DNA of 63,688 bases, the filler included, from Collodictyon triciliatum (Eukaryota): assembly GCA_043381765.1 (NCBI GenBank). It is 7 parts of 7 records of this genome, joined end to end, with 100 filler letters (N's around TTAATTAATTAA, not from the genome) between each part and the next. Parts side by side here need not be neighbours in the genome. Positions count along the whole stretch, not along the records: positions 13,888 to 27,665 come from JBHJMP010001921.1; 6 more parts are not named here. One strand, given 5' to 3'. The translations under genes were made by a program, and so were the position numbers. Shown here piece after piece: positions 11,740-55,622 of the stretch. A model generated the notes under the pieces. It did no database searches and was not told the DNA's origin. It was given only the letters and a program-made list of their open reading frames with translations. Position 1 is the stretch's first letter. The number at the start of each line of letters is the position of its first letter.

Positions 11740-13663
11740 TTAACGGCTCGTCGAAGATGTTGCCGAAGAAGCGGGAATCCGGATGTACTTAAAGTAATCC
11801 CCACTCCGCGAATCTGCAGATTAAGTCGATAGAAATCAACACTCAACTTGTCCATGATAGAGAAAACACTTTTCATTTGGGAAAAAAACAAAACAAGACA
11901 AAACAAAAATCAAATCAAAAAACAAGTAAGAAGAACATGTTGTTCAAGTCGTACCTGGCGATGTTCCGGCGCTGAATTGAATTTCGGCTTCCGTAAGGAC
12001 GCTGGGAAGAATGTGAAGAAGGTAAGAGGGTTTGTACACTCCAAAGAAAAGAGAGAAAAACAACAACCGAAGTAGTCGTATTTATGATGGCCTTGCTTTG
12101 CCAGTGCGATGTATACAAACCTCCCATCAATGATTCCGTGCTCTCTGAGAAGCTCATTTTCAAGCCGTGTTTGCTGCTCCTCCTCTCTCCATTGCTGTAA
12201 ACATGAATTATAATTCACGTTTGCAAGCACAAAGATAACATTTAAATCTCTTGCTGTTTCTTTCATTCTTTTTTTTTTTTTATCATATTCAATTATATAC
12301 ATTTTTCTATTTGAGGTACGGAGTAACAAATAAAATAACCAAAGCCAAAGGAAACACAGCCATCTCAAGTGAAATGAATACCTCATATCTTTGCTCGGCA
12401 AGGAACTGGCGAAATAGGTTTGTGTTCATAAGATAATATATTTGCTCTTTTGCCTTGTCAAACAGGGCAGGCTCGTATTTTCCTGCGTGGTTTTCGTGAA
12501 TTAAGTTCGCGTGTCAGAATGATTGGCAGGATACAAATATTCTATTCTTACATTCCTTTCTACCAATTATAATTATGAAACGAAAAGATTATTAATTTTT
12601 CTTTACGTTGGCTGCGCAGAATATGGTCCCGTGCGTCATGCGAAATATTAATCTCAAGAGGTGACGAAGGGGAGATATAGTTGCTGATGATTTCCTAGTT
12701 GAAATGTTGACAAAGTATAATAGGATTACTTTCAATATGCAAATGATTTTTTTTTTTTGCTTTTTTTTTTGGTTTTGTTTTTGTTTTTGTTTTTGTTTTG
12801 TTTTTGTTTGTTTGTGATGCTAAATTAAAGTAATTATGGCAATATTTCCGTGTCGTGAGTCTCTTTCTGTCAATACAACTCTCACATTTGTGTACTCGAG
12901 AAGCGTCGGTGAGTTTGCTTTGATGAGCTGGTTGCGAACTAAAAGCGCCTCCCAAAACTCGACACACTCTCCGCAATATTTTGAAGTCGCATAAACCTGT
13001 CAGGATTTGAGAGGATTTGAGAGGATATGGCACAATCGCAGACGCGGATAGTTTTGCATGTCTGAGCAATTATATGTGTGTCGTGATTTCATAGATAGGG
13101 TCACGGGATGAATAGATACTCAGGAGAAATGAATATAGAAAATGGCAATTAAAAAAAGAAAATAAAAAAAATGAAAAATGATTCACATGGGCTTTTTTTA
13201 AAAGCAATCATGAGTTATGTAAACAAGATTGATAAAGTTACTATTTTTACCTTAAAATTATGTCTCCATTCTGGGTCATACAATAAATCCTCCAGATTAG
13301 AATCAAAGAAGTCTGGGTTCGTTCTATGATACGAATGAAAAAGAAAAAAAATAGTTCGGTTTTATTAGGAGAAAATAAGTGGTCAATGAAAAATGTCATC
13401 GTATCACTCTTTCATCTCCGATTCGACTTGTTAGATTTCTTGGTCGCACGAGGAAAAAAAAGTGCATATTTTTCATTTAAAAACAAAAAAAAAGTACTTC
13501 TTAACAAGATTTCTGAAGTTAGAAAGGTATTGCTGGTCATTCTTAATGTAAGCTACCAAGCTCGCGCCGACAGTAAACCAGTAAAAATAATTGATGTTGA
13601 CAAGAGTCTATTTTTTTTTTAGTGATATAACTAAGTAAATAAATGCACCTGAAACAAAGATTT
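11740..13663 (-). CDS. Membrane-anchored RGS-domain protein (possible 7TM-RGS), 5'-truncated at the contig end
   Basis: Spliced exons give a hydrophobic segment (NYFYWFTVGASLVAYI), then an RGS box LEDLLYDPEWRHNFK|VYATSKYCGECVEFWEALL...EIISNYISPSSPLEINISHDARDHIL...LFDKAKEQIYYLMNTNLFRQFL, ending ...PASSATSSTSR* at 11740. The RGS box is not visible in the ORF track because the exons are short. Confidence 0.8.
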
Positions 13664-13787: not shown

Positions 13788-13887
13788 NNNNNNNNNNNNN
13801 NNNNNNNNNNNNNNNNNNNNNNNNNNNNNNNTTAATTAATTAANNNNNNNNNNNNNNNNNNNNNNNNNNNNNNNNNNNNNNNNNNNN
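13788..13887. other. Artificial contig linker (N-run + TTAATTAATTAA + N-run)
   Basis: 100-nt spacer with stop codons in all six frames; identical design at five other sites. Confidence 0.98.
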
Positions 13888-13995
13888 CTTTTCTTTTTCT
13901 TCTTTTCTTTTTCTTCTTTTCTTTTTCTTCTTTTCTTTTTCTTCTTTTCTTTTTCTTCTTTTCTTTTTCTTCTTTTCTTTTTCTTTCCTTTCCTT
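13888..13995. repeat. Pyrimidine-rich tandem repeat (CTTTTCTTTTTCTT-like)
   Basis: Visible directly at the contig start. Confidence 0.9.
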
Positions 13996-14022
13996 TCTCT
14001 TCGGTCTCATTCAGCCTGTAAG

Positions 14023-16734
14023 TGGATAAACTTCATTACAAAGGTTGTGACGAACTTGGTTTTGTCCCTTTCAATCCACAACACTTTTTATACAACGAAA
14101 GTGTACCCATATATAACAGTTTATTGCACAAACAACACCAAATTAAATACAGATTGATGAAAGCAGGAGCTTTGATGAATCCAAGACAGCACCTGAATAA
14201 CATAATAGTATGATTAGTATGTATAATAAGGCTAAAAATACTTAATAATATCATTCTATTCCTTTAATCAATTTATATTTTCTTTTTATATGTGTAATAT
14301 CATAAAAATTCAAAAATAACAAAGAAGCCCTTGCCTTCGCCCAGACAGAACCCAACCTATAAACCTTCCACCAAACCTAGATTTCAAAGAAAGCATACTA
14401 TCCACACTTGCGGCGGTAATCATGTTGTTTGGGGCCGATATGTTGACTTTCAGTCGAAATGGCCGTATGGCTGTCCTTTCGAACTCGCCGAATCAGCTAT
14501 CAGCGGTATGTCTCAAATCACTTCTGAAAAAAAAACTTTGTGTGTTTGTTTGCCACAATGTGCACATTTTGAAAGTCTCGGTAGATGATTAATTTTACCT
14601 GAATTATTTTTATTTATTTATTAAATTGACTGTTTTACTAAAGTTTGATTAAAATTGAAAACTCAGTGGTTTCCTAAAGGAAAAAGTAAAACAAAGACTT
14701 TCAGATATAGAAAAGAAAACCTCTTGAGTCTGAGAACCTAAAGTCTATAAAATCAGACTATCGAAATGTGAAAGCATCTCTAAAGTCGATTGTAAAGAAT
14801 GCGTATTACTATGACAAATCAACGATACAGGTTAGTGTCATAATTTGGTTACCGATGCTTATCTGTTTGCAAGATGTTACACATTGAAATCACAACCCCC
14901 AACAATCGATGAAAAGTTTTTTTGTACGCTTTAAAGGCAGTCGGAATAGTTTCACAAGATAGACCCACAAGATTTTAAAAAAAAAAATAATCCAGGTTTG
15001 AGAGATGACATGGTGACTTTTTATCTCAATGATTTTCGATTCCTTTTGTCCCGAGAAGAACGCTTTCCGTTGGTTGGACTGTCTATTGTATTACCGTACT
15101 TGGCGAATCAAATGTTAACAGCTTATCATAATAACATTAAGGAGCATTTTGTAAAGAGGTTACTGTGCTTTATAAAAAACAGTTCCTAAAGACGAGAATA
15201 TTACGGAAGCTATTAAAAAGGCAGAGTTACGAAAGTTGAAAAAAGCCATCTTCAAGAAACTCGAAATGCCGGAGCAATATAAATAATGGGCTACAATACA
15301 TTTGCATCGTATCATTCCCAGCGATATTGTAAATGGTATCAAATATATCGCCAAAGTCAATCCGAAGAAGTACACACATTCCGTGTCTGATTTACATGAA
15401 TCGTATTTTTGAGGATATTGGAACCAAACTGTTTCAACCAATCTCTATAAGAACTAACAATATACCATGTCATATTACTCAAGATACTGCATGTTTGATA
15501 GATCTGTTAGTATTATCTGAAAAACATTATTAATGAATATATCAGTATGAAAAGAGACACTGTGAATTGAGTTCTTTGAAATGAAGAAGAGGGTTTATCA
15601 TCAAAGAGACTACAATTTTAAATACGCGATACAAGCAGACGGCTTGGCAGTGTATTATTGTTTGAAAAGAAACGTATTTCAAATGCAAAATTCAAATATA
15701 ATAAAAATAAAAAAAAAACTCAAGAACATGTTTATATTGATGAACTTTCCGAAGAGCTGTTATCTTTATTAGCAACAAAAAATGTTTGGAGTGACGCAGG
15801 CAAGTTTAATTTTGTTTACATGGTGGGTGAGAAAGTTAAGGAATTATGTTACACTACTCACCAAACAAGACATGATAGCAAATCTCTTAAAAATCACAAA
15901 ATACTCTTGCGCAAGAAAAAAAGTACAATGCTTCAGGGATATGTATGGAAACAGATTTACAAAGTGCTATTTCTTTTGGTGTCACAGGACTTTTGAAGAG
16001 AATCAGCAGTTTGAGACATTAAGAGTATCTTATATCGATTAAGAGACAGAACTTAGTAAACATAATTCATACACGGTCGATTATGAAAAATTCGGGAATA
16101 TGTATATATGAAATCAAGGTACCACATAGTATTTTCCAGATTTTGTGAACAAGTAACTTTTCGAAAGATGAGATGGAGACAGTATGTTAATACAAAAATA
16201 AGTAAACCTTTTTTTATGGACCGAATCGAAAAGACATTTCGCAAGGATGTTGTACTTGCGTATGGAGACTGGAGTAGAAAATCTCAGATGAACCATTTTA
16301 TGGCAACAATCGGAAGAGGAATCCAAAAAATACCATCCAAACGTTTTGAAACAGTTAGTGTGGATGAATTTAGAACCTCCAAGATGTGCTGTAACTGCGA
16401 AAAAGAACTAGATTTTATGAAACTGAGAGGAAATACAAAAAAGTTTTATAGATGTCTCATATGTAAAGAATGCAATCGGTCAGAAAGCAAACAAAGTGTA
16501 TTCTCGACAAGGGACTTTAACAGCGCCAATAATATACCCAACAAAGTTCTTTCAATTCTTCAATATAAAGCATACACCTCCTCTAAAAAACAGGCTGTTG
16601 GATCTTTTCTTGCAGCCTTCGCCACTACACAATCTTCGTGAAAAAAGTGGTGAGACCTTGGATGCTGGCGAACCGAGTTTACCGTTCGAAAGATTATATA
16701 CTCCTTTTAGTCTATACTAGAAAGGAGATACTGA
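14023..16734 (+). CDS. Putative 3' part of an unknown host gene whose last intron (14506-16720) contains the Fanzor remnant
   Basis: Exon ...LMKAGALMNPRQHLNNII ends at a GTATGA donor. It joins in phase to exon 14325-14505 (KPLPSPRQNP...HTIHTCGGNHVVWGRYVDFQSKWPYGCPFELAESAIS), which ends at GTATGT (14506). The acceptor TATACTAG (16720) then gives ERRY*. Inferred from splice signals only. Confidence 0.4.
14666..16641 (+). pseudogene. Fanzor1-type (eukaryotic TnpB-family) RNA-guided endonuclease, frameshifted/decayed; non-autonomous element remnant
   Basis: Collinear fragments across frames: VKASLKSIVKN..CHNLVTDAYLFARCY; LPYLANQMLTAYHNNIKEHFVKRLL; KLFQPISIRTNNIPCHIT.DTACLIDL; YAIQADG; RuvC-I SDAGK.NFVYM (from DPG); VVLAYGDWS; RuvC-II VDEFRTSKMCCNC; Zn ribbon C-terminal half CKEC; RuvC-III RDFNSANNI. 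Intronless, about 2 kb, with several stops and frameshifts. Confidence 0.9.
16600..16727 (+). ncRNA. Candidate Fanzor omegaRNA scaffold / element right end
   Basis: Overlaps the ORF 3' end, where TnpB/Fanzor omegaRNAs lie. Stems: TCGCCACT(16619-26)/AGTGGTGA(16646-53), CGAAC(16669-73)/GTTCG(16684-88), CTCCTTT(16701-07)/AAAGGAG(16721-27). Boundaries uncertain. Confidence 0.4.
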
Positions 16735-17202
16735 GACTCGAAGCCTACACAAAAAGGTCATAAGCAGCTGCCAGGAGGGTGTTCTGCCCCACATCAACAC
16801 CCAGCAAGCGACCATTGCCGACCTAATCCTTTGCTCTCTTTCTCTCTCGTTCTCTTTCCCTCCTTCGCCACGAACATCATACTTTTCGTGTGATACGTGG
16901 ATCCCAAAGCAATCGTAGAGCCGGGCCTCTTACAAAAAGGGCCGGTTAATCGACAGATGCCAACTACGCACTAGGGGAGGCGTCGAAGAAAGGAGACAGA
17001 CGAGACACAGGTTTATATCTAGAGCCCAAGAGGGAAAAGAGGAGGAAAGGACTTGAACGTGAATAGACATATTATTATGCATGGGGAGGAAGGAAACGAC
17101 GAATGCGAGTGTGTGTATGTATATAAATGTATAGGTCTAGAGACAAAGGACAAAAAGAGCGTAGAGGATATCTGCCCCACCAAACAGCCCAATAACCGCA
17201 TG

Positions 17203-20200
17203 CTAGACCAGAGGCTGCGGATGAGCAAACTTGGTGGGGTTATTGACCCTCCGGACAAGGTCATCCGTCTCGTCAGGCGGGACAAGGTCGTCGTCATCCC
17301 CGCAAGGGCTGAAGTTGTCTGCAACAGAGGCGCGGCGGGCTCTAGGAGGAGGAAACGGGTCATGGGCGATGCTCGGGAGCGGAGGAAGCGTTGGATGGAC
17401 GTCTGGATTGGCAGAGTGCGGCATCAGAGTCTGGATTGGTGGAGTGAGGGACCGCAGCTTTGGCTTGGGGATGGGGAGGGGAGGATGATGGCTGGCCGGG
17501 TCGTGGAGGCCCTGAGCTGAAAACGACGGCGATAATGATGGGGACGAGGACGGCGAGGGCGAAGGGAAGCGGAGCGACCGCACAATGTCCTTTGCAGCTA
17601 CTGGAGTGAGTGTGCGGCGACGCAGCGGAGATGAGCGGGCCGATTGGTTCTGGGCCACAGTGCCCGGATGCTGCTTCGCGTGCCCGGACGTGGACTCGTC
17701 TTTGGCATTCTCTCTGCTACAGTCTGACGGGTCGGTGTGCGCCGCGTTGTCTTGGTTGGTGGCTTTTTCGTCAGCTGCTGCTTGTTTGCTCTCTTCCCTG
17801 TCATTGTCGCTGTCATCGTCGTTGCCGTTGCCGTTGTCGTTGCCGTTGTCGCTGCCAGCAGAGGCGCAGTCGTCCAGTGCTGGGCGGTGTGCGTCATCCT
17901 CACACCCAGAGGCATTCTGCTTACCATCTGGCTTTGCGGTTGCATCATTTGAATCGCCAGATTCTTGTGGCTCGGAAGAATTGTTCCTCGCGGCCAGGTT
18001 CTCATTTCTGCAATCATGCGATAAAAAAAAATTATTGTGAATCTCTTTTTCTCCTGCTTTCACCTTCTCATACTCAAAAGATATTTTTTTTTAAAAAAAA
18101 AAAAAAAAGAGAAAAATACATGGGGCGTGTCAATTCTAATTTTTAGGAAGACAAAATAATTACGAGGCTTGCTTGTGAATCGACTCGGCTGTTTGAGAAC
18201 GAGAAGCGGGAGAGAAGGTGAGTCCTTTAGTCTTTTCTCTTTCTTGGGCGACCTATTGTCAGATCCGTAAGCGAATAACACCCTAATAATTTTCCCCTCT
18301 TATTTTTATGATATTAGAATAATTAACCAGTTGAATCTTTCGGGCAACATTAGGATATTGTTTCACCAATTCATCAAAATCCGTTTTGTGTAACTGTGAT
18401 TTGGTGTTTTTAGAAGGGCGTGTCGATTTTTAGAAAATGTATAAATTTGGCATATTTCACGTGAGATCAAAATAATTGATGCATTCCTACAAAAACAAAA
18501 ACAAAAACAAAAACAAAAACAAAAACAAAAACAAAAACAAAAACAAAAACAAAAACAAAAACAAAAACAAAAACAAAAACAAATCAATAATATAATATAA
18601 TATTAGCGAAACACATAAATTCAATTGATTGCCATACCACAAATAATTCGCAAACTTCAACTGCTTGGGCAGATGCTGTTCTCATGACGTTGGTAAGAAG
18701 TGCGATTTCTCCTGAAATCATCAAAAATATATGTTGTTATTGCATAAACATAAAGCGTGCGACATGATTTTTTCCTCAACTTTTTATTTTTACCGCTGAA
18801 GAACGTTCAAATGCACAAACCAAAGTATGAACCATCCCCAAGCTCAGCAATAACTGTCGAATAATCGGCTCCTAAAATCCTTACTTTTCCCCGGCTTATA
18901 AAATACATTTCTGCACCTCGTTCACTATTTGGAAAGACATTTGGATATATATGTCAGAGAAGTTCAGCTCATAGCGCCTCATTCATATATTGGGTAATCA
19001 AAACGAATGCAAAGACAAACCACCATCATACAATAGATAGCGGGATATGAAGAAATATTGAGTTTGGCCCCAATGAGATGACGTCAAGAAAATAACTTCT
19101 CACCCCTGTCGAAATATAAAATCACCAGGCGGACAGATCTCTGGTTTTATTTTCAGACACAAGGCCCGAATGAATGCTTCTTCAGAATCTCGAAAGAGGG
19201 GAACTTTTTGAAGGAGATTACGGTGTACATGAGTTGCCACCTCCATTTTCAAATCTCGAGGAAGGTCTTCTAATATGTCCCTTTCGTCAAGTCCTGAAAA
19301 AAAAAAAAGATTTACATCATAAACAACCTCGCCTTACACAGGAACATTCGTATAATAACCCTATTTTCCCGTAAAAAATTCATATGCGGACAAATGAGAA
19401 TAAATATGATTACCTTGATTGAGATACCATATACGCTCATAGTATTGACGAATCTTGTATCTTATTGTGGTCGGCAGTCGACGATACTTTATTGGTGCGG
19501 TGCAATAGTAATCATAATAATCATAATCAAATATTAATAATAGAAAATGGGAGGAAATCCTAATCCATAACTTCAAAACCGCAAGATTAACAACAGAGGC
19601 TATTTGGAATATTATATAATCAACTCACTCTCATGAATTCGTTTACTCCTTGTAGTCTATCACGAAATCGAGATTGAGTTCGGTCGAGATTGGCTGTTTA
19701 TTATGATTGGTGTGATTATGTTACTGATCATTGAAGCGAATGAGTAAATTTGGCCTGATGATAAAAAAAATAATGAGCTGGACAAAAGGCAGATATCATA
19801 CCTATCGCTGAATTCATAGAACCGATAATTGTTGCGAATACAAAAAGGGATATTATAACTACAATCAAGGTGAGAATGCACTCTGCATCTGTCTCAGGGT
19901 TTAAATTTCCTCCGAGCCCAGCAAGATTCGTGAATCCCCACGACAGAGTTCGAAGATATTTTGACGTGGGAGTCTATCATAGCATTGTTTTGATTGGAGA
20001 AAATATAAGGAAAAGATATAAGATGGAGGAATTAAGTAGAACCTGGACGATACAAGTATTTATACAAATGATTATTTATTAATAATATATATGAATGGCA
20101 CGTATTCTAATATCAACTACACTAATGTCCTTACATAGTTACTTATGTCCTCCGTAGCAGAGAATCCATTATCTCGAAATCCCTAAAAGTAATTGTTTTT

Positions 20201-22465
20201 GTATCTTTAACATGACGCATATATATATATCCCTTATAGAAAAACTAAACCTAGGTAAGAAATAATAATGGGTATCTGGAAAAGAATATAAAGGGGACAA
20301 AATGAATGAAAGAGTTTACTTGAATCCTGGAGACGTAATACCATGCGCATCCTAACCAGTGAGCAACCACTGCAAATTGAGTACTCATTTGCATTACGCG
20401 TGAAGTATTTGACGTTGATGCCCATATGTTGACCTAAAATGAGAGCAGGTATAAAAAAAATGGATAAGAGGAGATATATGCGATGTAGAGACACATATAT
20501 ATTCATTAAGAAAGTGACTTTTGCCAAACGAAGGAGACGAGTCAGTCTTATCAATCTGGGAACTCTGAGCGGGTGGCTATATTTGGAGCTGTTGATAACC
20601 AAAGAAAAAGGAAAAGAGGCAACAATGTCAAGGATAAACCAAGAACGGAGATATTTCTTTCCAATTCTCCTCCAATCTGTTATAGTCTGAAAGACAATAT
20701 TTTGTAAGTATAATTAAACTTTATTGTTGGAGGGATGTTTAAAATGCTTGCCATTCTCTTAACTATCATAATTGATGGATAAAGACTTCTAAAAAAATAA
20801 ATTGTATAAAGTCGATTACATCGCTTTCGTCTACGACAGCAGTTCGAAAAATAACACCTATGTTAATCATGAAACAAAAATCTACTAGAACGTCCCACAC
20901 CATCCACCCGCCCATCAGTTCTACCTGTTTAATCAGGGATATCAGGTTTTGGAAAATAAATAATCGAGTGAATTTGTCTGACATGTTTTTTTTTTTATTT
21001 GAAGCGTTGTTGTACGACTTTTTATGCTTTGGTAACACCCAAAATGTTCTCTGGTATTGATGATTAACTTTCATAATACTGTTTTTTTTTATTTTTTTAT
21101 TTTTTACTTTCGTTTATTTATTTAATTTTTTGAGAGGAACCTTTATCATTTTGAACCAATCAAGTAAATACAAACCCCAAAGCCTAATACATAAGGTATT
21201 AGAAGTGCTGTATATAAAATAAGAGAGCCGATGAAAAGGTCCCAAATTCTAAGATTTGGAGAATCGGGATATATTAATGTTTTCTGCTCCCATCTGTCCC
21301 AGATAGTATCCGCTTTTTCGACCTATTCCGATAAAAGCATTCTTAATTTTCTCACGTTTATATATATTCTTACACGATTTTTTCTTTTTTATAGAAAAAA
21401 AACCATGCATGTAACTTTATGAAGTTTCAGGATTTCATAAGGCCAACCTTGTCAAGATTTCGAGCAAATATACTCTGCCGAACTCTTGCATTCTTCGGCT
21501 GGCTGATAATACGAGTACTTGATGAATTCGAATCTGTTTCCATAATGACAGGAATCGACCTGGAGTTAGACGGATACTCTTCCATTTTGTTTTCATCCAG
21601 AGATATAATCGAGGGAGCGCGTGAATCCGTCCTCTACACGCAGAAGGAGTAAGCGTGCGATTAAAAAAGAATCTTGCATATATATGATCCCAACATTTGT
21701 TGTGAATCTTAATATTTTCTTTTTGCCTCACAGCTTAATTTTGCTCAAGCGATGAAATTTTTTTTTAGCAGAAATGAAAGAATGATAATATATATATTAT
21801 AAAATATAAAATATTGACCATCATAATTATATCAGGATAGAATAGTAAATGGATCAATCCATGAACAGACAAATGAGTAAATGAAAGAAATTAGATGATA
21901 AATATATATGCATATAGTTAGTTATTTAGACATCCATCCAAACCGTTCCAAACCACTCAGAAAGCTGGTTCTTTATGGATCTGCGGTCATCAAAGGCATC
22001 ATCCGGGTCGCTCACGGAGGGGGCTTTCAGAGATCCCTTTCGGCCCGCAGCCGCAGCCCGAAACCAGGACGAGCGTCGCCGACCACGAGGGATTTGAAGT
22101 CGATCAGTTTCCGGCAAATCTGTTCGTGGAGAATCCGTGTTGGAGGAAAACTTCAAAGCGCGGGCGGCATTTGCAGCGGTTTGGTAAGTTGCGGCTCGGT
22201 GCAAGGCCTTCATGGTGGGCGCAGACTCTGCAGAATGGCTGGCTTTGGACCGAAGGTGGAGATCTTCCTGCAAAGGCTCCTGCGTCACAACCACCGTTTG
22301 GAGATCGGGGCTGTGAGGCGAGTCTTGCGAGTCAGTGCGAGGCTCGGACCGGCCTCCTGCAGAGGGCGAAGCAAGTGTGCGGTGCGGGACGTCTGTGTGG
22401 ATGTGGAGTCTTGCGATCGGCTTTGGAGGTGCGACCACTGGGGATTCGCAAAGGTTCTCGCTCAT
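17203..22465 (-). CDS. Cyclic nucleotide-gated / CNBD-family 6TM cation channel with long disordered N- and C-termini
   Basis: Spliced exons: S1 IYPDSPNLRIWDLFIGSLILYTALLIPY; S2 WDVLVDFCFMINIGVIFRTA; S3-S4 YLRSWFILDIVASFPF..LRVPRLIRLTRLLRLAK; pore SWGFTNLAGLGGNLNP; C-linker ILEDLPRDLKMEVA; CNBD EMYFISRGKV..LGDGSYFG|EIALL..RTASAQA. Start and last-exon limits approximate. Confidence 0.9.
18489..18583. repeat. (AAAAAC)n microsatellite in a channel-gene intron
   Basis: Visible directly. Confidence 0.95.
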
Positions 22466-23599: not shown

Positions 23600-26479
23600 A
23601 TGCAATCCAAGCAGCTTTCCATCTTCCTCGTGGCTCTGCTGTTTGTGCAGTCCTGTGTTGCGGCACCAAAGTACGCATCCAAGGAGCTTGTCCAGCTTGC
23701 CCAGCAGGCCGCCCAGCGTTCGATCCTGAGTCTGATCACGCAGCAGAAATCAGCGACTTACCCAACAGCCTTCGACTACGCAGACATGCTCGAGTCTCCC
23801 TTTGTCCCCAAATCCGAACAGACGAGCGAGACTCTGTGCCGCAAGATCCAGCGCGAGGCCAAGAACGCCAGCCCCAGCCTGCTGATTCATCTTTCCCACA
23901 CGCTCAAGTGCGCCTCCGTGCCTGCCTCAACTCTGTCTCAGTCCGATGCGGCAAAGGGCTCGCTGGTTGATGTTGCTGCCTACGCCCTGACTCAGTCGGC
24001 CGATCCTTTGGCATTTGTTCTGCGTGTGCTGGAAAGCCGCGTCGATGCTCAGGGCTGGGTCAGCTGGACCGGCCAGTCCGATCACTCGCCTCGCGCGTCT
24101 GCCTTTGCCCTGCGCCTTTTGGCCCAGCTGGGGGCCCAGCAAAAGAATGTCCCGAGTGGCCTCAAGTCCACTGCCCGACTCATCACTTCGCGCCTGTTCA
24201 AGTCTTTGGACTCTGTCGACGAAACAGTCTTTTTCGTGGACGACGTTTCCGATCCGTCCAACCTTATTCCCGACACCGTGATCGCCACCTCTTCTTTGCT
24301 CAAGGCGTTTTCCGAGTTGCAGCCTTTTATCAATAACGTCGTCTCTCAGGTATTAGCTTCCTATGATCAGCTCGTTGGTTGAGATGATCAGCATAGTTGT
24401 ATTTGTATTCTCGAGTTTTAAAGGAAAAAAAAAAAAGGAGCATAAAAACGTATATGGTGTTTGTGCTACATATATGTGTGCTGCACTATTGAATCACGAC
24501 ATACTCTAAACTGCACTGCTCAGGCCTCTGTCCCCAAGTTTGGTGCTCATCTGATCCAGCAGCTTCATGTAGAAGATCTTGACCAAGCATTTGCTGTGTG
24601 GAAAGGATTGAAGGTTTTGAGCGATGGAAACATCGGTAAGCCCATCGTACTCACAGTTGAAGGTGGACCAAAGTACTCAAAGGATGCTTTTATTGCTGGT
24701 TTACAGGTTTGTCCATCAACATAAGATTTGTATTTGTTGTCAATAATAATCTTTTTATTATGACATATATCAGTCGCAAATGAATGAGGGATGTCTCTAA
24801 CAAATATCCGACTTCAGATAACCACCACAGATCTCCTTGGGCAGAAGGTGGATACCAACGCGAAGGTTCTTTCTCTAAAAGATAGAGATGAAAGCAACTC
24901 TGAAAACTATGCAGCTAATCTGAAGTTGACAAAAAATGAGAAAGGGCATACTCTTCAGTGGACCGGGTCTAACGCTAAGGCCGGTGTGCTTGTGCTTGAA
25001 TTGAGCGCAGAAGCCACAAAGGCTGGCGAAGGATATCTTCCCATCCGATCTCTTGAAGAGGCCGTCGTCATTACAACTGCGGTGGTTACTTCAGCTGCCA
25101 CATTCGGAGTACACCCATCAAAAAGTGATTATGAGGCACCTATTTCTAAGGACACGTAAGCTTACAACATGCTATTTATGATATTCTATCTTTATTATAC
25201 ATCTCTGTCTTTTGAGGTGGTTTATATGATTATTTTTTTCCATCGACCAATTGCTTCCTGACTTTCAAAATTATTCAGTATTCCTTTTGGAGGCAAGTTT
25301 AGCTCGGGTGTAGGCATCTCCAATGGAAATTACATAACCTTGTCTTTTGAATTGAATGAGATACAATCGAGTCTGCCCATCCGAGCCAACCAAGCCTTCC
25401 TAAGGCTAGTAAACAAGCAAAATGCAGACATGGTAGCATATCCGCTCAATTACCAGCAAGGGAAATACTCTGTTCGACTGGTGAGCCTCCTATTGAAAAA
25501 AAAACTATCATATCTGTTATTTAACATCAACCTAGGGTTGGGTAGCTAATAGTTGTGTTGGTATCTCTCTTAGGCTGTTTCTAACGATATAATCAGTCGT
25601 TTTGGAGTGAGTAACGCAAATTTTGATGCTGCTATTGTTATTGCCGATAGTAGTATTACAAATCCTGTCCTTTGGTCTCTTGGTCAGGTCACTCTTACTG
25701 GCTCCACCCAAGCACCGTATGTTGTAAACCCCGACTTTTATCTACGATTCATTAGTACGTGCACATACCTATTTCATTAGAGTAATTCCCTTCCTGAACG
25801 TACTCACCCAAACCGCCATTGATAGCACAAAGCCAGCACGCATCACCGATTCCCTACCAGAGATTCATCACCAATTCCGCCAGCCAGAGAAGCGCCCTCC
25901 CGCCATTGTTTCATATGCCTTCACGGTTGCATTGATCGCACCATTCCTGTTCTTTGTTATCGGGGTGAGATTCTCATTTTATTTCGTGATTTCCCTTCCT
26001 CCTTCGATTGCTATTGAAATTTCACTCCCGTGTGCCTAGGCCCTGAGGATAGCCCCAGGGGTTTCTCTACCAAGCACCGTTGGGTTCGTTGATGCTTTTC
26101 TCTTCCACATCGGCCTTGGCCTCATTCTCTTGCTCAACTTTGCATACTGGCTTCAACTAGACATGTTTACCGTAAGTTTCCATACGATATGTTCCTTTCT
26201 CTTGCATCTGCTTCAATAGCATGGAACTGCTACAAGTTGATTGAATTTTTTTTCTGATCTTTTCTTTTCTTTTCTTTTCTTTTCTTTTCTTTTCTTTTCT
26301 TTTCTTTTCTTTTCTTTTCTTTTCTTTTCTTTTCTTTTCTTTTCTTTTCTTTTCTTTTCTTTCTGCGACAGACTTTGGGATACCTCTCCCTTTTGTGCCT
26401 GGTGACATTTTTCTTTGGCCGCCGCGTTCTCTCGTCTCTGCCCGAAGTTGTCGGCACAGACAAAGTGAAAGCGGAATAA
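23600..26479 (+). CDS. RPN2: Oligosaccharyltransferase subunit ribophorin II (SWP1/OST delta)
   Basis: Signal peptide MQSKQLSIFLVALLFVQSCVA; QAFLRL; hallmark LPEIHHQFRQPEKRPPAIVSYAFT; three C-terminal TM helices (YWLQLDMFT|TLGYL); ER-retrieval-like tail KVKAE* (TAA ends 26479). Confidence 0.9.
26259..26363. repeat. (TTTTC)n microsatellite in the last RPN2 intron
   Basis: Visible directly. Confidence 0.95.
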
Positions 26480-27665: not shown

Positions 27666-27765
27666 NNNNNNNNNNNNNNNNNNNNNNNNNNNNNNNNNNN
27701 NNNNNNNNNTTAATTAATTAANNNNNNNNNNNNNNNNNNNNNNNNNNNNNNNNNNNNNNNNNNNN
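27666..27765. other. Artificial contig linker
   Basis: N-run + TTAATTAATTAA + N-run. Confidence 0.98.
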
Positions 27766-27934: not shown

Positions 27935-30900
27935 CTAATTTACTTGGCTATCTCTTGCAACCTATATAAAAAAGGGAGAAGGAGAAAGTATTTTGGCCTT
28001 TTTATGTAAAACAATAGAAATGGCGTGGTCTTATTTTATCGTAAAAATGACAACTTGGTAAATGCAACTGATATTAAAGATGTTGGTGTTTTTTTTCTGT
28101 CGTGAAATGGCTAAATATTGCATCATTTGTATATATATATATATATTACCCGGACAACGTTAGATAGCTCTTCTCCCATGTCATTTGTGTTGGCGACTTT
28201 TGTCAATTGCCTGATTAAATCCACCATCGACTGGTATAAAGAAAGCACCGAATAAAAAAATACGAACCCGCCATTCAGAACCAGCAAAAGAACAGTTATC
28301 CATAAGTCCTGTTGAACTATGTATCCAACTAATGCCAGGAAGAAGGAAATAAATATTGTGTATAAGCTCAATATTTCCATCCTGTTTTCAATCTCGTCTT
28401 TATACGGGCTATGCTTGTGCTGCGCCCAAATTGAAACCTAAATAGAAAGGTATTAAGCATCCGAAATTAATATTTTGATGTCTTTTCCTTTCCCTTTCCC
28501 TTTCCCTTTCCCTTTACCTTTTCTTTTATTATTTTATTTATTCATTCCTATATGTTTTCCTGTCCTTTTATCAGTGTTAGACATACTCTTACCTGAATTA
28601 TCATCGCAAGAATTAAAAGTAAAACTGCTATGTTTGTGTACGGAATAACCGTGATAGCAAAAGAAAATGCAAGCCTTCTGCCTGTAATGATGATTTCCCA
28701 GAACGTGTAATTCTAATTATCAAGATATATTTGATTAGTCCCCCTGCACTATCATATTTTGTGAGAGTTTAGCATATTTATTGTGGATGTACCTCTTTGT
28801 AAGGAGAATACAGAAATCCGTATCTGGTTTGGAAAGATGATTCAGAGGAACGTTTGTTCAGTATTGTCCATAGGAATACTGGGAATGATACAACAAAGAA
28901 AAAGAATATTGGAACAGATAATCCAATCATCGAGCGATATTCGTCAGAGCTCGGGCTGCAGCGAATCCAAGGATATTGATTGAGAAAGTAAGCGTCCTCT
29001 CCAACATCGTACAGAGTGCAACTAAATACACTAAATACATCCTTTGCAATCGAGTAGTAGATGTGGTGAAGCAGATATATCGCAACAAATAGAGTCTGTT
29101 TGGTATAGGATGAATTTATGTTATTGTAAACTGTATGTAATACTGATTTAAGATGTATTCATTAATATTTATGAACAAATATTGCAATATTAAAGTGCAC
29201 TGCTGCAAGTATAAATGCAGATGAGTGACAAAGTAAACACACACACAAAATGTTTTGACACATTGCGATAATCAGGTGGTTCGTTCGTACTTTATCCCTA
29301 TTGAAGATTGGTATAATTGCTGCGACGAATCCCGTACAGACTAGAAACAATATCCTGAAGTAGCTCATGCCTAGAAGATATAAAGGACTGTCCGAATTTA
29401 ACAGACAATCAAGGTTTGGTAACTGGATTGAGCCAAACGATGATGTGATGCTCACTGCGTTATCAACTGCACTGGAATACTGAAAGACTGCAGATATGAT
29501 TGATAAAGTTTGCATATGAAACACGATAATCTTCAATTTGCCTGTATAAGGAGAATAAAGCTTACATACTTTGATTACATCTCGCTATGAAAAAGTTATG
29601 AAATATGTCGACAACTTTTGTTTATGTATGAAAATAATGTTAAAAATAAAAAGGTACCTGACGAACTGGATTTTAAAAAATACAAAAAGTAAACGAAAAA
29701 AATAAAGGCCAATGGGAAGAGAATGCCAGTTAAGTAGATACCACTTCTACTACATTTCGAGCAAGAGCGACCTTGCTGGGCATACCCGGTTCGGCATTTT
29801 GAACAAACGCGGCCTTCATATCCATCAGCACAAGCACTTCCGAGAGAGTCAACATAAGTGGTATTCAAAGATATATTTGGGATTGTATGCTGACATGAGT
29901 CGGGTTGAGGACAAGTAATGATTGCGGATACGTTGACTGTGTTTGGAGACGCATAGCAATACTTTAGAGAGACACCGTCCAAACATAGACACGAACTAGG
30001 GCACTCGATGCATTTGCCCTTGAATCCGTAGTAGTTTGGTAGGCATTGGCATAATATTCTGTCGTAATAACTGGGCTCTAAATCAATTTTGCCCATCATT
30101 AAGTCTGATTCTGGTCTGAATGATGGGCAAACTAAAATATCTTCCTTACTTTGTAAATTGAAAGACCCTGTTTCCTTGATAAATTGGGGCAATAAAGAGG
30201 ATGCTCCATGGTTCAGCTTTGTGTTCATCAGTCCCAGATATTGCAATTGAGAAAGTAAATTATATGTTTCAGGTATCGTCCCAGTAATGGGATTTCCAGA
30301 GAGGTCGAATTTGTTCCAGAGTAAAAGTTCAGGAACATATCCAAGCTCAGTAATTTGATTGTAGCGTATGCTTAGTTCTGTGATTTGGGGGACATAATCA
30401 AATATCCATCTGTCGACTATTCCTGTAAGATTGTTATTGTCCAACATAAGAATCTTGTAATTATATGATGAACCGCTGTGAGCAGGAACAATAAATGTAT
30501 GTACTGGACCAGAAAACATATTGTAGCTAAGGTCTATGTAATAAAGATTCTCCATGCCCCAAAATAAAACTGGCATTACTCCCACCAAGTCATTTTTTGA
30601 GAGACTGAGATATTGCAAAGATTTCATATTTGTTATTGCTTTTGGTATAGACGCATTGAGTTTATTGTATGAAAGGTCCAAATACTTTATGTTTGGTATG
30701 TGAATATCAGCAGGAAACTGTCCCTCAATATTGTTGTGACTGACATCTAAGTAATTCAGGTCGGGCAAGTCGAAGGATGGAAAGGTTCCAGAGAAAAAAT
30801 TATTGAATATCTCTATAACTTTGATAACTCGATTATGTTCCCATTTTTTTAAAAATCCTCCCAGCTTATTGCTGTAAACAGAAATTTGCTCCAATTTTTC

Positions 30901-33900
30901 CAAGTGACCAATCTCAGGAAGGCTGCCTAATTGTATATTGGAAGGAGAGTTTTAGCTGTAAAATCAAAATACATAAGCATCGACTGAAAAAAAAACCTGA
31001 TAGATCGTTTTCTGATAAGTTGATTTGCTGCAATGCAGGATTATCCTCAAATTCAGGGACTGTTCCTGTGCAATAATAAATATGTGTAAAGGGTGTGGCA
31101 ACCTCAAGCTTATGTGACAAGCTTTGTAAAAGGGTGTATAGTTCTTTAAAAAAAACTGTTGGCTATATCAGCTTTGAATCGAATAAAGGCTAAAAACCTT
31201 CAAGACTATTCTTAGACAAATCAATATCTTCTAGAAGAGGCGAGTCTTCGAAAATTGGTATCGTTCCTGTGTCAAATTAAATTCATCATTTGTATTTGGC
31301 ATATCAGTGATTTTTAAGCCAAGTTAAACCAATAAATTAAGCTATTTCTGATTAAAATAGCTCACCACTCAGTTGGTTATTATTTAAATGCAGCTTTTGA
31401 AGATTGTAATATGGAAATTTTGGTATATTTCCTAGACCAGTTTTGTTTTGTTTTGTTTTGTTTGAACTATTTTTTCAATTCCTGAAGATGCATACAAAAG
31501 TAGAAGATAACAAGAATGCTTAACACTTCCATATAAAGGAGAGAAAAAGTACCGCTGAATTTGTTTCCTCCAAGGGTTAATATTTGAAGGAGAACGCTGG
31601 GAAATGTTGGCAATGTTCCTAAATAAGAAATTTAGCACACTCTACAAAAAATAATCATAAATTGCTATTACCGCAGAAGTTGTTGTTATGAAGACGTAGA
31701 TGGTCAATATGAAAAAAATGACTATAGGAGGGTATTGTTCCTAAAAATATAAAAGATAGTAAATTTATGTGAGTGGAACATTATATCCTCGGGATGTAAA
31801 TGTAGACAAACAAAATTGAGTATTGAGAGGAAATTGCTTCTTTCCCTTGACAGAAAGGCTTTAATGTAGTGTATAAAAGAAAACCAGATAGTCTATTTCC
31901 GTAAAGCTCCAAGACGGTAATAAGTGGTGTGTTTTCAAACAAAGGCATGCCACCTTTCCGATCCGTAAATTGATTAACGATATTTATGAGATTTTAAGAG
32001 AGAAAGAAAATTATTATTCATTTCAGTTGGTGCAATTATTTCTTTTAACATTAACAAGGTTACGTATGTATATACCAGCAAATCTATTTGACGACAGAGC
32101 CATAACTCTAAGACTCGGTAAACAGCAGAAGTTTGGGATATCCCCTTTGAGGTGAACATGATGGTTCAGTCGCACTGATTTCTTTTTTACACCAAAATTC
32201 ATCATTTCATTTTTCATTCGGAAAAATAGTATGACAAGAAAAAAAAAAAAAGTACCCTCAAGATGATTTCCATATGCAAATATAAGCTGGACAAGCGGAA
32301 AATTTTGGAAATCTGGAATGCTGCCTATCATTTTATCAAGGTTGTAAATGTTAAAAAAAATTACAACAAAACAATTATAAATATGAAAACCACCAAGTAG
32401 ATATATGTCCGGCAAAAGGGTGATTGTGTATAGTTTGAATAATTCGATTCTGGTATAAACTACCCAATAATATCATGGAAAAAAAACCTTCGATAAAGTT
32501 TGTACTAAAATCCAGGGATAGCAGAGTTGGTAGAAAATTGAAAATGGTTAGACTTCCTTGTATATTGTTTGAATCGATAAAAATGTATCTTATGTCAGAG
32601 AATCCATCAAAATCCGGGATAGTGCCTAGGCAGAATGCAATAGAAGTAATGCAAAAATTAATGTTATGCATCCTATGAATTTTTGCAAGAAAGGTAAGAT
32701 TATTAAGTTTTCCTTTATTCGATTCAAGGATTATTAAGTTAAATGTGATAATATGTGCTCGTAAAAGAGTTCATGAAACCTGATATCAAATTGTCAGTCA
32801 ATCTCAAATAGATTAAGCTGTGTAGATTTGAAAAACTTGGTAGGGTTCCTGTGTTATTTTTATTAAAAAAAAAAAAAAAAAAGGAAACTGAGAATGAGGA
32901 TGAGGATGGAATCCTTTATATTGAATAATGGCAAAAAAACGCTAGAGAGGAATATATGATACGTCATAAAAGAGAGAAACCCTCCAACTTATTTTGGTTC
33001 AACCACAGGTCTTCGATGTAGTATGATTGATCGAATTTGGGTATGGTTCCTAATTACGATGAATGGATTAGTGTGGCGCAGATACCATTTTAATACTGCC
33101 TCATTTGCATCAGTTTATGTATGTCAAAAGAGAATATATTTGAGTAAGTAAATCTAATATCACCTGATACTTCACAATTCATAATGTACAAGTATTGAAG
33201 ATAAGGCGTGCCTGAAAAATCTGACAAAGCACCTATTTCCAAAAAAAAATTCTTCAAGGATAAACTATTGTATTGTGGGCCAGAATAATGTAATGAAATT
33301 AAATTAAAACGAAACAAACCTGATACAAATGTGTCTGAGACATAAAAGGTGTTGAGGACGGGCAAATTTTCGAAACCGGGTATTGAATCTTTTGTTTGGC
33401 ATAAATGAAAGTAAATTGATATTACAGTAGCAAGATTAATGATAATGTGACATAAAACAAATACGATACTTGATAGGAATCCCTCTCCTAGATAAAGTTG
33501 CTCCAATTCGATTAGATTGTCAAAGTTTGGTATAGATCCCGTTAAAGGATTTCCATAGAGTGATATTAAACCAATGGATGTGATATTTTGGAAGTTTGGT
33601 ATAGTTCCTTCGATTAAGTTGTATCCAACATCGAGGTAAAGCAAATTTGGTGCGTGGAAGTCTGGTAGCATCCCTGAAATATAGTTTGAACTCAGGTCTA
33701 AATAGTTTAGCATCGAAAAATTTTGCAATGTAAACTCAGCTTCCTCTAAGTTCCCGATTAAATTGTTGGATGGTAGGGATATCCCGGTTACCGGACAATT
33801 GTTGTCCTGATGGGAAAAATTAATGGGGGAAAAAAAACAGGCAAATGTTAGTATGGGTATTTTGGAGGGGATAATCTTGAATGAGGGCTGTTTTTCATTA

Positions 33901-34572
33901 GAACAGACAAAAATACTCAATTTGGACCAATAAAAAAAGTAAGTGTTGCCTTGGTGATTTCTTCGGTGCAAGAAGAATCACAGCTGATTCCTAACCAAGA
34001 ACAGATAGGTATGGAATGATTTCCCCATCCTGATTTATCAATCCACCCATCACCTCTCATTTGGTCATGAAATACCAAAAGAGCATTTAATTCTTTTTCT
34101 GCCTTATTATCCCGCTCAACACTAGTCATAACACCTTTTTTATTGAATTCGGCGGTATATTTTGCAGGCTCTAATAATACATCTATCCATGAATCCTCTG
34201 TGGGATTTCCTATTTGATCCTCATAAGTTTTTCTTGGAGGATAGTTCTCCTTAAAGGCCGCATTAATTTTCTGGTGTTCCTCATTACAGGATTCTTTGTG
34301 TTGACAATCGCGTTGTTCGGCCTTGCAGGAAATATCAAACAAATGAAGCAAAAGGGCGACTGCCTGCTCTTGGTCGAGACCTTGGATCTCACTTCTTTCT
34401 ATCGAGCACAGTTCATGTCCATGGTATTTGTAATTTGATGAGAGAATACACCTGCAAATAAATGTTGGTGGTATTGATTTGTATGTATGAAGAGTGATGG
34501 TGTTAAAGCGTGGGAATGGAATCTTTTGATACGGCAAAGTAAGACAAAAAAAAAAGTAGAGATCCTAAGCAT
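27935..34572 (-). CDS. Large LRR receptor-like protein: LRRNT cap, plant-type LRRs, Cys-rich/EGF-like region, multipass (about 7TM) membrane domain
   Basis: LRRNT LNALLVFHDQMRGDGW..CSWLGISC; repeats LxxLxLSxNxxxGxIP; CQCLPNYYG..CIECPSSC..CADGYEGRVCSKC; TM region KIIVFHMQTLSII, FWEIIITGRRLAF, PYKDEIENRMEILSL; ends VARDSQVN* at 27935. The start at 34572 needs a 1-nt correction in a T homopolymer, so the 5' end is uncertain. Confidence 0.85.
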
Positions 34573-37410: not shown

Positions 37411-39862
37411 ATGAGCCAGCAGCCGCCAAACAAGAAGCCCAAAAACATCGCTGGCAGGACGCTTTCAGTGGCTGCTCAGTTGGTGGACTGCAGCGATGTT
37501 CAGACAGAGACTGAATCGAGAGCCAACGAAGCTCCCTCGATTCTTGGCGATGCAGAGGACGATCACATCATAGTTGACATCAGCGACGGACGCATCGAAC
37601 AAGAGTCTTTGGACTCTCAGCTAGGGGTAGACGAGACGCATTCTATTCAGGTCAACATCACCAGAGCATACCTTGAGGGAGGATGCTATTCTGTTCTCCT
37701 TTCCTTCTGTCGCTTCTTTCTGTTTTCTTCTTCTCCTTCCTTTAATCGATTCAAGGGATCCGCTACATCTTTCTATGCAATTATTTTCTTGCGGTTTGGG
37801 GTCTTTTAGGGTGTCACTAAAATAATATTTTTTTTTATTGGGGTTTAATATGAATTGATTGGAGGGATTTCATACGTCCTATCATTATGCCTTTTTTTCT
37901 TTTCTAAAGAAAACTCACAGAGACTTGTGAAACGATATTAATACTGGTGCATGCTTTTCCCCCCTCCCTCAACACAGGTCAAATCCCACCTCGACGGAAT
38001 GATCACAACTCAATCAGGTAACAACCTTGATATGAAGTGATACTTTTTTTTTTATTTATTTATTTATCAGAACCGTAAGGGAACATACCAATAGGGAATT
38101 AGTCATGTGTAATCTAAAAGGATGCATCAGGATGATTATGTCTAACTTATAATTCGACCTATTCTCCCACATGGACTAACTGCTACATAAAAAAACAAAA
38201 AAACAAAAAGACATCCAACCGACAAAGGAGTCAAGCCAAGCGAGCCCAACGTCCGCCCAAAAGGCGCTTGGATTCTCCACACCAGCGATACATGCATCAT
38301 CCTTGGAAGCACAGGTAGCAGAGAGCCTGGCAAATCGCCTGGAGCCTCAACCTCAATCCCAACAGTCACAGCAGACACAGAGCCAAATCCAAAGCCAGAG
38401 CCAAACTCAAACATCAGTACAACATTCCTCACTTTCTACATCCATCCCAATACAAGGGATACTCACCGGGCAGACACATACTCAGTCCCAACTTCTAGGC
38501 AACATAAATACCAGCGTAAATCTTGTTGGAGTGATGGGAGGTAACGCCGGCCACGGACACGCGGGAGTCCAGCACACTTTACTGCCAGGAAACATCCCCG
38601 TGAATGTGCCACACAATAGTCTAGTTGCATCAGGGAATATCATGGGAAACAGTGGCCTTATGACAGAAGCAACGGGATATGGGTACATACCATTCCCGGT
38701 TCGGTCTGGATTCCCATTTGCAGAGGTGCGAATCACCCAGCAGCCCCATTACGGCGTGGTCATCTACAAGCAAAACATGACTCCTCCTTTCGCCATCCAT
38801 GTCATCCTCCGCGGGTGTGCTTCGTCCGGGTTTGCACCGTATGCCGTACAAGCAGAGCTTTTTGACGAGAATGACCAGCCTATCAACAACCAATCCATCA
38901 TGCGGGGCGGCTTTGCACCTTGCTCCAACGAGGTTGTTTCCCTCAAGGTTCATCACGCACAGCCAGGTGTTGACGAAGTGGAATACTCTGCTTCCTTCGA
39001 GCGTTTCCGCATTAACCTGTCTGGGCGCGGCAAATACAACTACGTCCGATTCTATGCGTTGAGCAGACTGTCCGGGGTTAACGGGGGCAAAGAATGCATC
39101 GGAGTCTCGGACCGGGTCCGCGTCATTGTTTCCTCCCAAGCCAACCACCAGCGCGACTTTATCTGCAAGCGCGTGTGGGAAAACATGGCTGTCTCCGCCA
39201 CTTCGCTCTCATCCCTGCCCCAGCTCATGCCGCAGTCTTCTCTCAGCATAAAGTCCGGACTGCCCGTGCCCGATGTTGTCCGTCACATCCAAGAGTCTTG
39301 GCGCCAGACGCTTGGCCGAGCGCCGCTGGAAAACGAAATCATGTTTCTGTATAGACACAGCTGCCAAACCTACCCGGCCGGCCGCCGCGACTCTGACTCA
39401 CTTCTGGCATCGTCTGACGAGGTTGTGGGGTTCTCCATCTTCCGTGACGGCCTTTGGCGAATCCTCTATGAGGCCGAGAAGGCACTGCGCCATGACACAC
39501 GGCTTGCTGAGTCCTGGCAGAAAGGATACATCCACGGCTTTCTGTCCCGCTCCGAGGCTGAAAAGCAGGTTGTTATGCAATCGCCCGGGACAATGGCTGT
39601 GCGCTTCTCTGAGACAGACCCTGGCGTTCTCTTGATTGCCGCCAAGGGCACAGGGGCGAATGTCCGTCATTGCCGCATCCCTCGCGACCAAATCGACCGC
39701 GGCCACTTTTTCGATATTCTTTCCCAGCAGCGCGAATGGGTATTTGTGTTGGCAGCAAACGGCACCGCCGTCCAGACGAGTGAGGCATTCGGGCCTTATC
39801 TGCCGAAGGACACGCACTCGCAGCGAAAGGAGGAACAATACGAAAACCTGGTCTTTAAGTGA
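37411..39862 (+). CDS. STAT-like transcription factor (DNA-binding-like domain, linker, SH2, C-terminal Tyr)
   Basis: Two short exons splice into a long final exon from 38211: VRITQQP (start of a STAT-type DNA-binding domain), WQKGYIHGFLSRSEAEK..PGTMAVRFSETDPG (STAT-type SH2 with the pTyr-binding Arg), tail EEQYENLVFK*. Confidence 0.8.
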
Positions 39863-41543: not shown

Positions 41544-41643
41544 NNNNNNNNNNNNNNNNNNNNNNNNNNNNNNNNNNNNNNNNNNNNTTAATTAATTAAN
41601 NNNNNNNNNNNNNNNNNNNNNNNNNNNNNNNNNNNNNNNNNNN
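41544..41643. other. Artificial contig linker
   Basis: N-run + TTAATTAATTAA + N-run. Confidence 0.98.
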
Positions 41644-55522: not shown

Positions 55523-55622
55523 NNNNNNNNNNNNNNNNNNNNNNNNNNNNNNNNNNNNNNNNNNNNTTAATTAATTAANNNNNNNNNNNNNNNNNNNNNN
55601 NNNNNNNNNNNNNNNNNNNNNN
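55523..55622. other. Artificial contig linker
   Basis: N-run + TTAATTAATTAA + N-run. Confidence 0.98.

Follow-up and report, generated by a model that had tools for sequence, protein, structure and literature searches.

The closest described systems to the locus reported here are the Fanzor1 RNA-guided nucleases, eukaryotic RuvC enzymes of the TnpB type with an omega RNA as guide, whose occurrence in protists and giant viruses, association with Mariner transposons and rearranged active site are already in print (parts of PMC10432273, PMC10530073 and PMC3627910, which are also the parts cited below). The published Fanzor signature consists of a Gly or Pro that replaces the RuvC-II Glu together with a conserved Glu further downstream (Jiang 2023, PMC10530073). 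The Gly-for-Glu change and the downstream Glu are given as G500 and E536 in Bao & Jurka 2013 (PMC3627910), where Fanzor1 is also described in Mariner elements, including Fanzor-only and viral ones. In addition, Saito et al. 2023 (PMC10432273) described an omega RNA scaffold of Fanzor1. We describe here a decayed Fanzor1 gene, from here on the relic, in a stretch of 63,688 nucleotides (the window) from the assembly GCA_043381765.1 of Collodictyon triciliatum. We consider that the region 14705-16641 of the window is, with a probability of about 0.9, a decayed and non-functional Fanzor1 gene copy that belongs to a multicopy DNA-transposon family of a poorly sampled microbial eukaryote.

The relic is broken into short open pieces that are scattered across all three forward frames between positions 14711 and 16641, as observed in a stop-to-stop list of open reading frames (ORFs). 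Its longest surviving piece (Table 1) matched P0001, an intact metagenome protein of 648 amino acids, with an E value of 2e-66. Comparison of P0001 with the whole window by tblastn resulted in collinear pieces on the forward strand at 14711-16629 only (E 7.7e-57 and 6.4e-86), and all other matches in the 63.7 kb had E values of 0.13 or higher. In a frameshift-aware alignment covering residues 3-642 of P0001, 367 out of 627 aligned codons were identical (58.5%), with 13 gaps on the protein side, 7 extra codons and no intron-sized gap. The original prediction, which was made from the sequence before any database search, had described collinear, intronless fragments covering the whole protein, and the alignment bears this out, with all fragments in collinear order along a single Fanzor1-type protein. 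The span of 14666-16641 that it had proposed fits as well, the gene proper starting at 14705.

The residues that define the active site were examined in a family alignment of 48 sequences (A1). In this alignment D364, G521, E555 and D604 of P0001, as well as the four cysteines C562, C565, C587 and C590, were invariant, and all of them are retained in the relic, which keeps 27 of the 32 invariant and 39 of the 53 nearly invariant columns of the family. The motifs AYGDWS, DEFRTSK, CCNC...CKEC and RDFNSA are all found in the last open piece, where the CxxC...CxxC zinc ribbon is placed between RuvC-II and RuvC-III. The original prediction had singled out three RuvC acidic residues, the AYGDWS motif and a CxxC..CxxC ribbon as still readable; all were located at the codons listed in Table 1, and its choice of acidic residues was right. 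The relocated Glu follows the Gly by 34 residues in the relic's family, against the "approximately 45" mentioned in Jiang 2023 (PMC10530073). Among the relic fragments, a match to Pfam was obtained for the C-terminal piece only (PF07282, E 0.0025, below the threshold), the other six fragments being without match, and no family of the local Pfam copy matched P0001. The database label of P0001 is PF26935.

The assignment to Fanzor1 rather than to Fanzor2 or TnpB is supported by sequence profiles and by a structural model. A search of P0001 against the sequences of the Protein Data Bank (PDB) retrieved the three solved Fanzor1 proteins only (GtFz1, 2e-28; PpFz1, 3e-24; SpuFz1, 4e-23), and the profile built from the 48 members of A1 matched the same proteins with E values of 1.3e-83 for PpFz1, 2.9e-77 for SpuFz1 and 8.9e-57 for GtFz1. 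SpuFz1 was covered end to end (profile positions 3-606 of 617). After these, the profile matched Cas12g (0.04) and LaTranC (0.1); Fanzor2 and TnpB chains were absent at E ≤ 1. An AlphaFold2 model of P0001 (mean pLDDT 82.3, pTM 0.80) was compared with the PDB by Foldseek, and its top seven matches were all Fanzor1 (TMq 0.63-0.73, E 4e-26 to 6e-23). Cas12X, Cas12f, the mimivirus Fanzor2 ApmFz2 (2.6e-5, TMq 0.22) and TnpB (4e-5, TMq 0.20) appeared further down, their E values being separated from those of Fanzor1 by about 17 orders of magnitude. The best matches in profile and in structure were therefore Fanzor1, and not proteins outside the TnpB/Fanzor group, in agreement with the earlier proposal of Fanzor1 rather than Fanzor2. 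Thus, SpuFz1 (8GKH, 9CEU-9CEZ), PpFz1 (9CF0-9CF3) and GtFz1 (9CER-9CET) match the relic's family over the full length of the profile, in the N-terminal WED/REC half as well as in the C-terminal RuvC/TNB half, appear to have the same fold, and share with it the rearranged RuvC triad and the zinc ribbon, although identity between these chains and the P0001 model is only about 18-21%. The basic N-terminus of the relic's family, MKKRK, fits the nuclear localization signal (NLS) described for Fanzors (Jiang 2023, PMC10530073). It has to be noted that, unlike the solved proteins, the window copy is a pseudogene, and that the omega RNA of this lineage is putative.

The alignment to P0001 revealed ten frameshifts (14819, 14923, 14970, 15175, 15374, 15519, 15650, 15913, 15981 and 16094) and five in-frame stops (14833 TAG, 15284 TAA, 15548 TGA, 15563 TGA and 16040 TAA). 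Moreover, positions 14705-14710 read ATA TAG in the window and ATG AAG in other copies from public sequencing runs, which indicates a lost start codon and a sixth in-frame stop. These lesions are not assembly errors, because metagenome contigs from other studies reproduce them. Contigs of the metagenome run X3 match the window at 15868-16018 with no gaps and at 16028-16178 with no differences, and contigs of the run X4 match it at 14581-14830 with no differences. Altogether, the X3 and X4 matches contain 0-3 differences and no gaps, and the stretches that they cover span five lesions plus the ATA. The copy is dead, as had been proposed, with ten frameshifts, six in-frame stops of all three kinds and an ATG changed to ATA. 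The last 535 nucleotides of the gene are free of lesions; for 15 lesions in 1.9 kb this is at chance level (p about 0.12, first-order estimate), and we dropped the lesion-free tail as a special feature.

Evidence for a multicopy family was obtained from the contigs of four runs, compared with the region of the relic at a likeness of at least 80%; no run contained half of the words of this region. Two of these public runs, X1 and X2, belong to one study and come from organisms A and B; that they are RNA rather than DNA is a guess. X1 yielded 390 contig pieces, 33 of them at ≥99% likeness, 78 at 95-99%, 135 at 90-95% and 144 below 90%, and X2 yielded 361, distributed as 31, 71, 119 and 140 over the same classes. 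Some of the copies in X1 and X2 have an intact start codon. Copy-specific indels are present in these runs at or close to two positions where the window is frameshifted, 15913 and 15981 (+AAAG behind 15918, -2 at 15979), and the copies also have breaks of their own, such as +A at 16290 and +AA at 16436. The picture is that of a transposon family whose copies differ in age and are decaying. By comparison, X3 and X4 contributed few short near-identical contigs, and the runs X3-X9 (river, lake, estuary and freshwater metagenomes) have small word shares, of 0.05-0.08.

The contigs cover the region from 14400, the start of the compared stretch, to about 16700, with none beyond 16749. The depth of related contigs falls from 48 at 16575-16661 to 8.6 at 16662-16748 and to 0 past 16749; therefore, the repeat would end near 16700, about 59 nucleotides past the stop codon, which is within the range observed for the relatives. 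In some X1 and X2 copies, skips of 89-171 nucleotides (14503-14667 or 14580-14668) affect the AT-rich segment 14503-14667 just upstream of the start; this segment may be an insertion in the window copy or a deletion in the others.

Relatives of P0001 are numerous. A search at E ≤ 1e-3 retrieved 3147 representatives, 537 of them at ≤ 1e-30, and a word-indexed search retrieved 104 relatives of 560-680 amino acids, nearly all of them unnamed proteins and one labelled "Transposase, viral metagenome". Loci encoding relatives numbered at least 330 in IMG/VR, many of them in giant-virus metagenome-assembled genomes, and at least 417 in JGI metagenomes. In viral contigs they were recovered only with an alignment as query, as P0001 alone resulted in 36 pattern matches, none of which was confirmed. 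In the JGI metagenomes no near-identical copies were present, the best locus being 53-56% identical over the C-terminal piece, and none of the relatives found was closer to the relic than P0001. The phylogeny that had been suggested as a check was built with FastTree from 132 sequences and 614 columns, with X placed in the translated relic wherever its frame is broken. The relic paired with P0001 (support 1.0), and both fell inside a well-supported clade of relatives with 33 leaves (0.979), which includes L001, L002, L086, L093, L098 and L102.

The anatomy of the elements that carry these relatives was analyzed in 160 fetched loci, 80 of them viral, from which duplicates were not removed. A pair of terminal inverted repeats (TIRs) was found around the gene in 84 of these loci (E < 1e-3). 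About 40 of the 84 TIR-bounded units are Fanzor-only and measure 2.27-2.5 kb, and the remainder measure 2.6-5.7 kb. The right TIR ends 42-96 nucleotides past the stop codon in most units. Visual inspection of 17 of the 84 loci showed ends of the form TA|CACC...ATTTAAAACGCCGACTT, flanked by TA at left and right. A DDE_3 homologue of the transposase of locus L003 lies beside the gene in 25 of the 80 viral loci. The L003 element itself (L003:4627-7949; also L001, L060 and L096) is 3.3 kb long and has 33-nucleotide TIRs, a divergent DDE_3 (IS630/Tc1-mariner) transposase and a Fanzor1 gene; in the 173-kb giant-virus contig that carries it, the genes on its two sides encode a helicase and an mRNA-capping enzyme. 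The architecture of these sister lineages corresponds to that published for PGv-1 of Phaeocystis globosa virus, PUl-1 and the Fanzor-only PUl-4 (Bao & Jurka 2013, PMC3627910): Fanzor1 lies between TA-flanked TIRs, with or without a DDE transposase of the Mariner/IS630 type. In both sets, many elements reside in giant-virus genomes.

In the relatives, nucleotide conservation extends over the last ~100 nucleotides of the gene and over the spacer between it and the right TIR, and this conservation persists in loci with an earlier stop codon (L002, L004 and L005). RNAalifold predicted 32 base pairs for this 3′ module, 20 of them with compensatory changes (L001-L160, for instance L003:7797-7949), and one of the predicted helices links the stop-codon region with the tip of the right TIR. 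R1, a covariance model of the module, found it in 71 of 97 held-out loci (80 matches at E ≤ 0.01, two of the matched loci being near-duplicates of training loci), with nearly all matches at the 3′ end of the gene and on its strand. In position and structure the module fits an omega RNA scaffold, for which it is a likely candidate. The intact ancestor of the relic most likely worked like the characterised Fanzor1 enzymes: an NLS-bearing protein of about 650 amino acids would bind an RNA made from the 3′ end of its gene and the right end of the transposon, and this RNA guide would direct DNA cutting beside a short target-adjacent motif. For the relic's family, both a putative omega RNA and any past activity are proposed by analogy.

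Several observations weigh against the view that the relic is a copy of a transposon family. The X1 and X2 pieces are contigs and not reads, and the organisms A and B need not be close to the organism of the window. At the relic itself, no significant inverted repeat was detected between the flanks (best inverted E 0.69-2.4), and a TIR profile made from the relatives had no match there, its best E of 4.9 lying inside the ORF. A Smith-Waterman comparison with the TIRs of the clade gave a best score of 24 at 14366-14394, against shuffled maxima of 20.6-22.8 ± 2-2.7. No transposase remnant was found on the relic's contig (0 of 61 ORFs; best E of a transposase search 0.03-0.6), and the R1 model was silent at 16500-16800 with its filters off. 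Likewise, no Rfam family matched at the relic, the fold of 16500-16700 was no better than that of shuffled sequences (z -1.21), and comparison of 13888-14710 and 16630-17000 with the 160 related loci by blastn and tblastx resulted in a single 24-nucleotide low-complexity match.

TIR candidates picked by eye at 14366-14394, 14470-14498 and 16666-16700 were rejected, as none of them beat the shuffled controls; the one at 14470 also conflicts with contigs that join 14400-14502 to the gene in other copies. A 9-nucleotide inverted match, CTTTCGAAC/GTTCGAAAG, was set aside as well; it contains the palindrome TTCGAA. The resemblance of 16666-16700 to a right TIR is loose and seen by eye, and is taken as a hint only. 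The same applies to the region around the relic's stop codon, which can be aligned by eye, without statistical support, with GCCACAAATC..TGA of the relatives. The transposon ends of the relic may have decayed, or its left end may be beyond the readable sequence; since only about 820 bp of contig precede the gene, that side of the element may be missing. The 3′ RNA module may have decayed or diverged.

These absences bear on the kind of transposon involved. By analogy with the sister lineages in giant viruses, a TA-flanked, TIR-bounded element of the Tc1/mariner-IS630 type is the assignment that we slightly favor for the relic's family. Because Fanzor-only forms are common, the absence of DDE_3 at the relic does not exclude a mariner-type family. 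On the other hand, the relic differs from PGv-1 and PUl-1, which are likened here by published description and not by sequence, in that it has no detectable TIR, TA duplication or transposase. It is possible, if rather unlikely, that the relic belonged instead to a non-autonomous element that depended for its movement on a transposase from outside the Tc1/mariner-IS630 type (hAT, Helitron, Sola or CMC). The lack of detectable TIR, TA duplication, DDE_3 remnant and mariner-type 3′ module at the relic would be consistent with such an element, hAT is the most frequent partner of Fanzor1 in the account of Jiang 2023 (PMC10530073), and Fanzor elements are often chimeric (Bao & Jurka 2013, PMC3627910). 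Against it, the relic falls inside the 0.979 clade, whose members with readable ends share the TA|CACC... TIR and in some cases have DDE_3; the by-eye alignment around the stop codon points in the same direction as a hint.

A further alternative is that the relic is an endogenous viral element, that is, an integrated giant-virus fragment carrying a Fanzor1 transposon, rather than one copy of a transposon family that multiplied in the host genome. Most of the named relatives come from giant-virus contigs, such as the 173-kb contig of L003, one relative carries a viral-metagenome label, Fanzor elements have been described in host contigs that are integrated virus (Bao & Jurka 2013, PMC3627910), and GC content is about 33% in the block 13888-16640 versus 48% just downstream. 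However, IMG/VR contains viral contigs only, so that the viral character of the closest relatives is partly a database effect, and P0001, the closest of all, lies on a 2.6-kb contig of unspecified origin. Furthermore, the hundreds of pieces of graded divergence in two runs, from ≥99% to <90%, argue for repeated transposition. No other viral gene was found on the relic's contig (13888-27665): none of its 61 ORFs of at least 70 amino acids had a viral or transposase Pfam match, a test that does not reach the relic's left side since the upstream flank is only 820 bp. The only domains matched were an ion-transport domain (Ion_trans, 20237-20713, reverse strand) and ribophorin II domains (25262-26036, forward strand). 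We therefore regard a viral insertion as improbable.

Two remaining explanations have hardly any probability left. A functional gene, with its breaks due to assembly errors, programmed frameshifts or a variant genetic code, would agree with the homopolymer runs at some frameshifts (A11 at about 14975, A7 at about 15915) and with the 184 open codons at the end, but it is contradicted by the ten frameshifts and the lost start codon, by the presence of the same lesions in contigs of independent metagenome runs, by neighboring ORFs that the standard code reads normally, and by in-frame TAA, TAG and TGA, which no single reassignment would rescue. A Fanzor2 or prokaryote-type TnpB (IS607/IS605-like) has in its favor the weak PF07282 match and the motifs common to the whole superfamily, since both Fanzor2 (mimivirus ApmFz2, 9B0L) and IS607-IS605 TnpB (ISDra2 TnpB, 8H1J) share the RuvC and zinc-ribbon core and the RNA-guided mechanism, and Fanzor2 also has a relocated Glu (Jiang 2023, PMC10530073), but these proteins, compact at about 400-500 amino acids, are much shorter and lack a significant match to the family profile, they reach TMq values of only 0.20-0.22 against 0.63-0.73 for Fanzor1, the 650-residue size and long N-terminal half of the relic's family align end to end with SpuFz1, its relatives have DDE_3 as transposase partner and not a serine recombinase, and the serine-recombinase TnpA that usually accompanies them was not found near the relic in the Pfam scan of the 61 ORFs.

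Table 1. Coordinates of the Fanzor1 relic, its active-site codons, the surrounding repeat unit and the linkers in the window
Feature	Position	Strand	Remarks
Fanzor1 pseudogene, from ATA start remnant to TGA stop	14705..16641	+	Intronless, collinear with the 648-residue P0001
Longest surviving open piece, 184 amino acids (RuvC-II, zinc ribbon, RuvC-III)	16087..16641	+	62% identical to P0001
RuvC-I Asp codon (SDAG; D364 of P0001)	15793..15795	+	Invariant in family
Gly at the canonical RuvC-II Glu site (AYGDWS; G521)	16264..16266	+	Invariant; Fanzor-type rearranged site
Alternative catalytic Glu (DEFRTSK; E555)	16366..16368	+	Invariant in family
Zinc ribbon (TNB), Cys codons 16387, 16396, 16462, 16471	16387..16473	+	PF07282 E 0.0025, below cut-off
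RuvC-III Asp codon (RDFNSA; D604)	16513..16515	+	Invariant in family
5′ non-coding part of repeat unit	14400..14704	+	Multicopy in public runs; left end at or before 14400, not found
3′ tail of repeat unit	16642..16700	+	End near 16700 placed from depth fall; no significant TIR
Linker N44-TTAATTAATTAA-N44	13788..13887	.	Left boundary of the relic's own contig (13888-27665); leftward sequence physically unlinked
Linkers N44-TTAATTAATTAA-N44, six-frame stop	13788-13887, 27666-27765, 41544-41643, 55523-55622, 58469-58568, 61991-62090

With regard to the layout of the window, it consists of separate contigs (three of about 13.8 kb followed by shorter ones) joined by N linkers and is not a single molecule, so that two genes with a linker between them are not neighbors. 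The gene of the relic starts about 820 bp from the left end of its contig, which begins with a (CTTCTTTTCTTTTT)n microsatellite at 13888-13982. Further microsatellites, T/G-rich and (CAAAAA)n arrays at 12743-12812 and 18489-18600, cause spurious "inverted repeats" around the region. Directly downstream of the relic there is a GC-rich, low-complexity ORF of 295 amino acids without Pfam match (17203-18090, reverse strand), whose nearer end, at 17203, is about 500 bp from the end of the repeat. Elsewhere in the window, on contigs other than the relic's, an open frame of 560 amino acids at 38180-39862 (forward strand) encodes an SH2 domain of the STAT type (Pfam SH2, E 3e-6); STAT families are the nearest Atlas clusters for this frame, and the sole relative of its protein among 5.8 billion proteins is a EukProt transcriptome protein with 51% identity. 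The protist host given in the original prediction is plausible for this eukaryotic assembly. Leucine-rich-repeat (LRR) receptor-like ORFs with a cysteine-rich transmembrane tail were also found, at 29596-30951 and 33090-33977, both on the reverse strand (LRR_8, E 4e-22).

Protists, fungi, algae and giant viruses are all known to carry Fanzor1 genes, some of them dead, and the relic alone matters little. Its value is to point to a Fanzor1 family present in many copies in a eukaryote that has been poorly sampled, identity with the closest intact relative being only about 58%, and it links this family to a very large and mostly unannotated clade on giant-virus contigs, with defined ends and a covarying, RNA-like 3′ module. 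Tentatively, and more likely wrong than right, the relic could be seen as one of hundreds of copies of a protist-resident Fanzor1 family that has its sisters in giant viruses, of which some copy, or a consensus, would still encode an active nuclease, and whose right end and omega RNA would differ from the module of the viral relatives, because the R1 model fails at the relic. If this were true, the family would document the movement of transposons between giant viruses and the hosts they infect, and would provide a new guide-scaffold variant. If intact copies exist in the organism, they would, with their right end and guide RNA, be the point of greatest interest, and they would add one more candidate for a compact RNA-guided nuclease and a further data point on the exchange of transposons between viruses and hosts.

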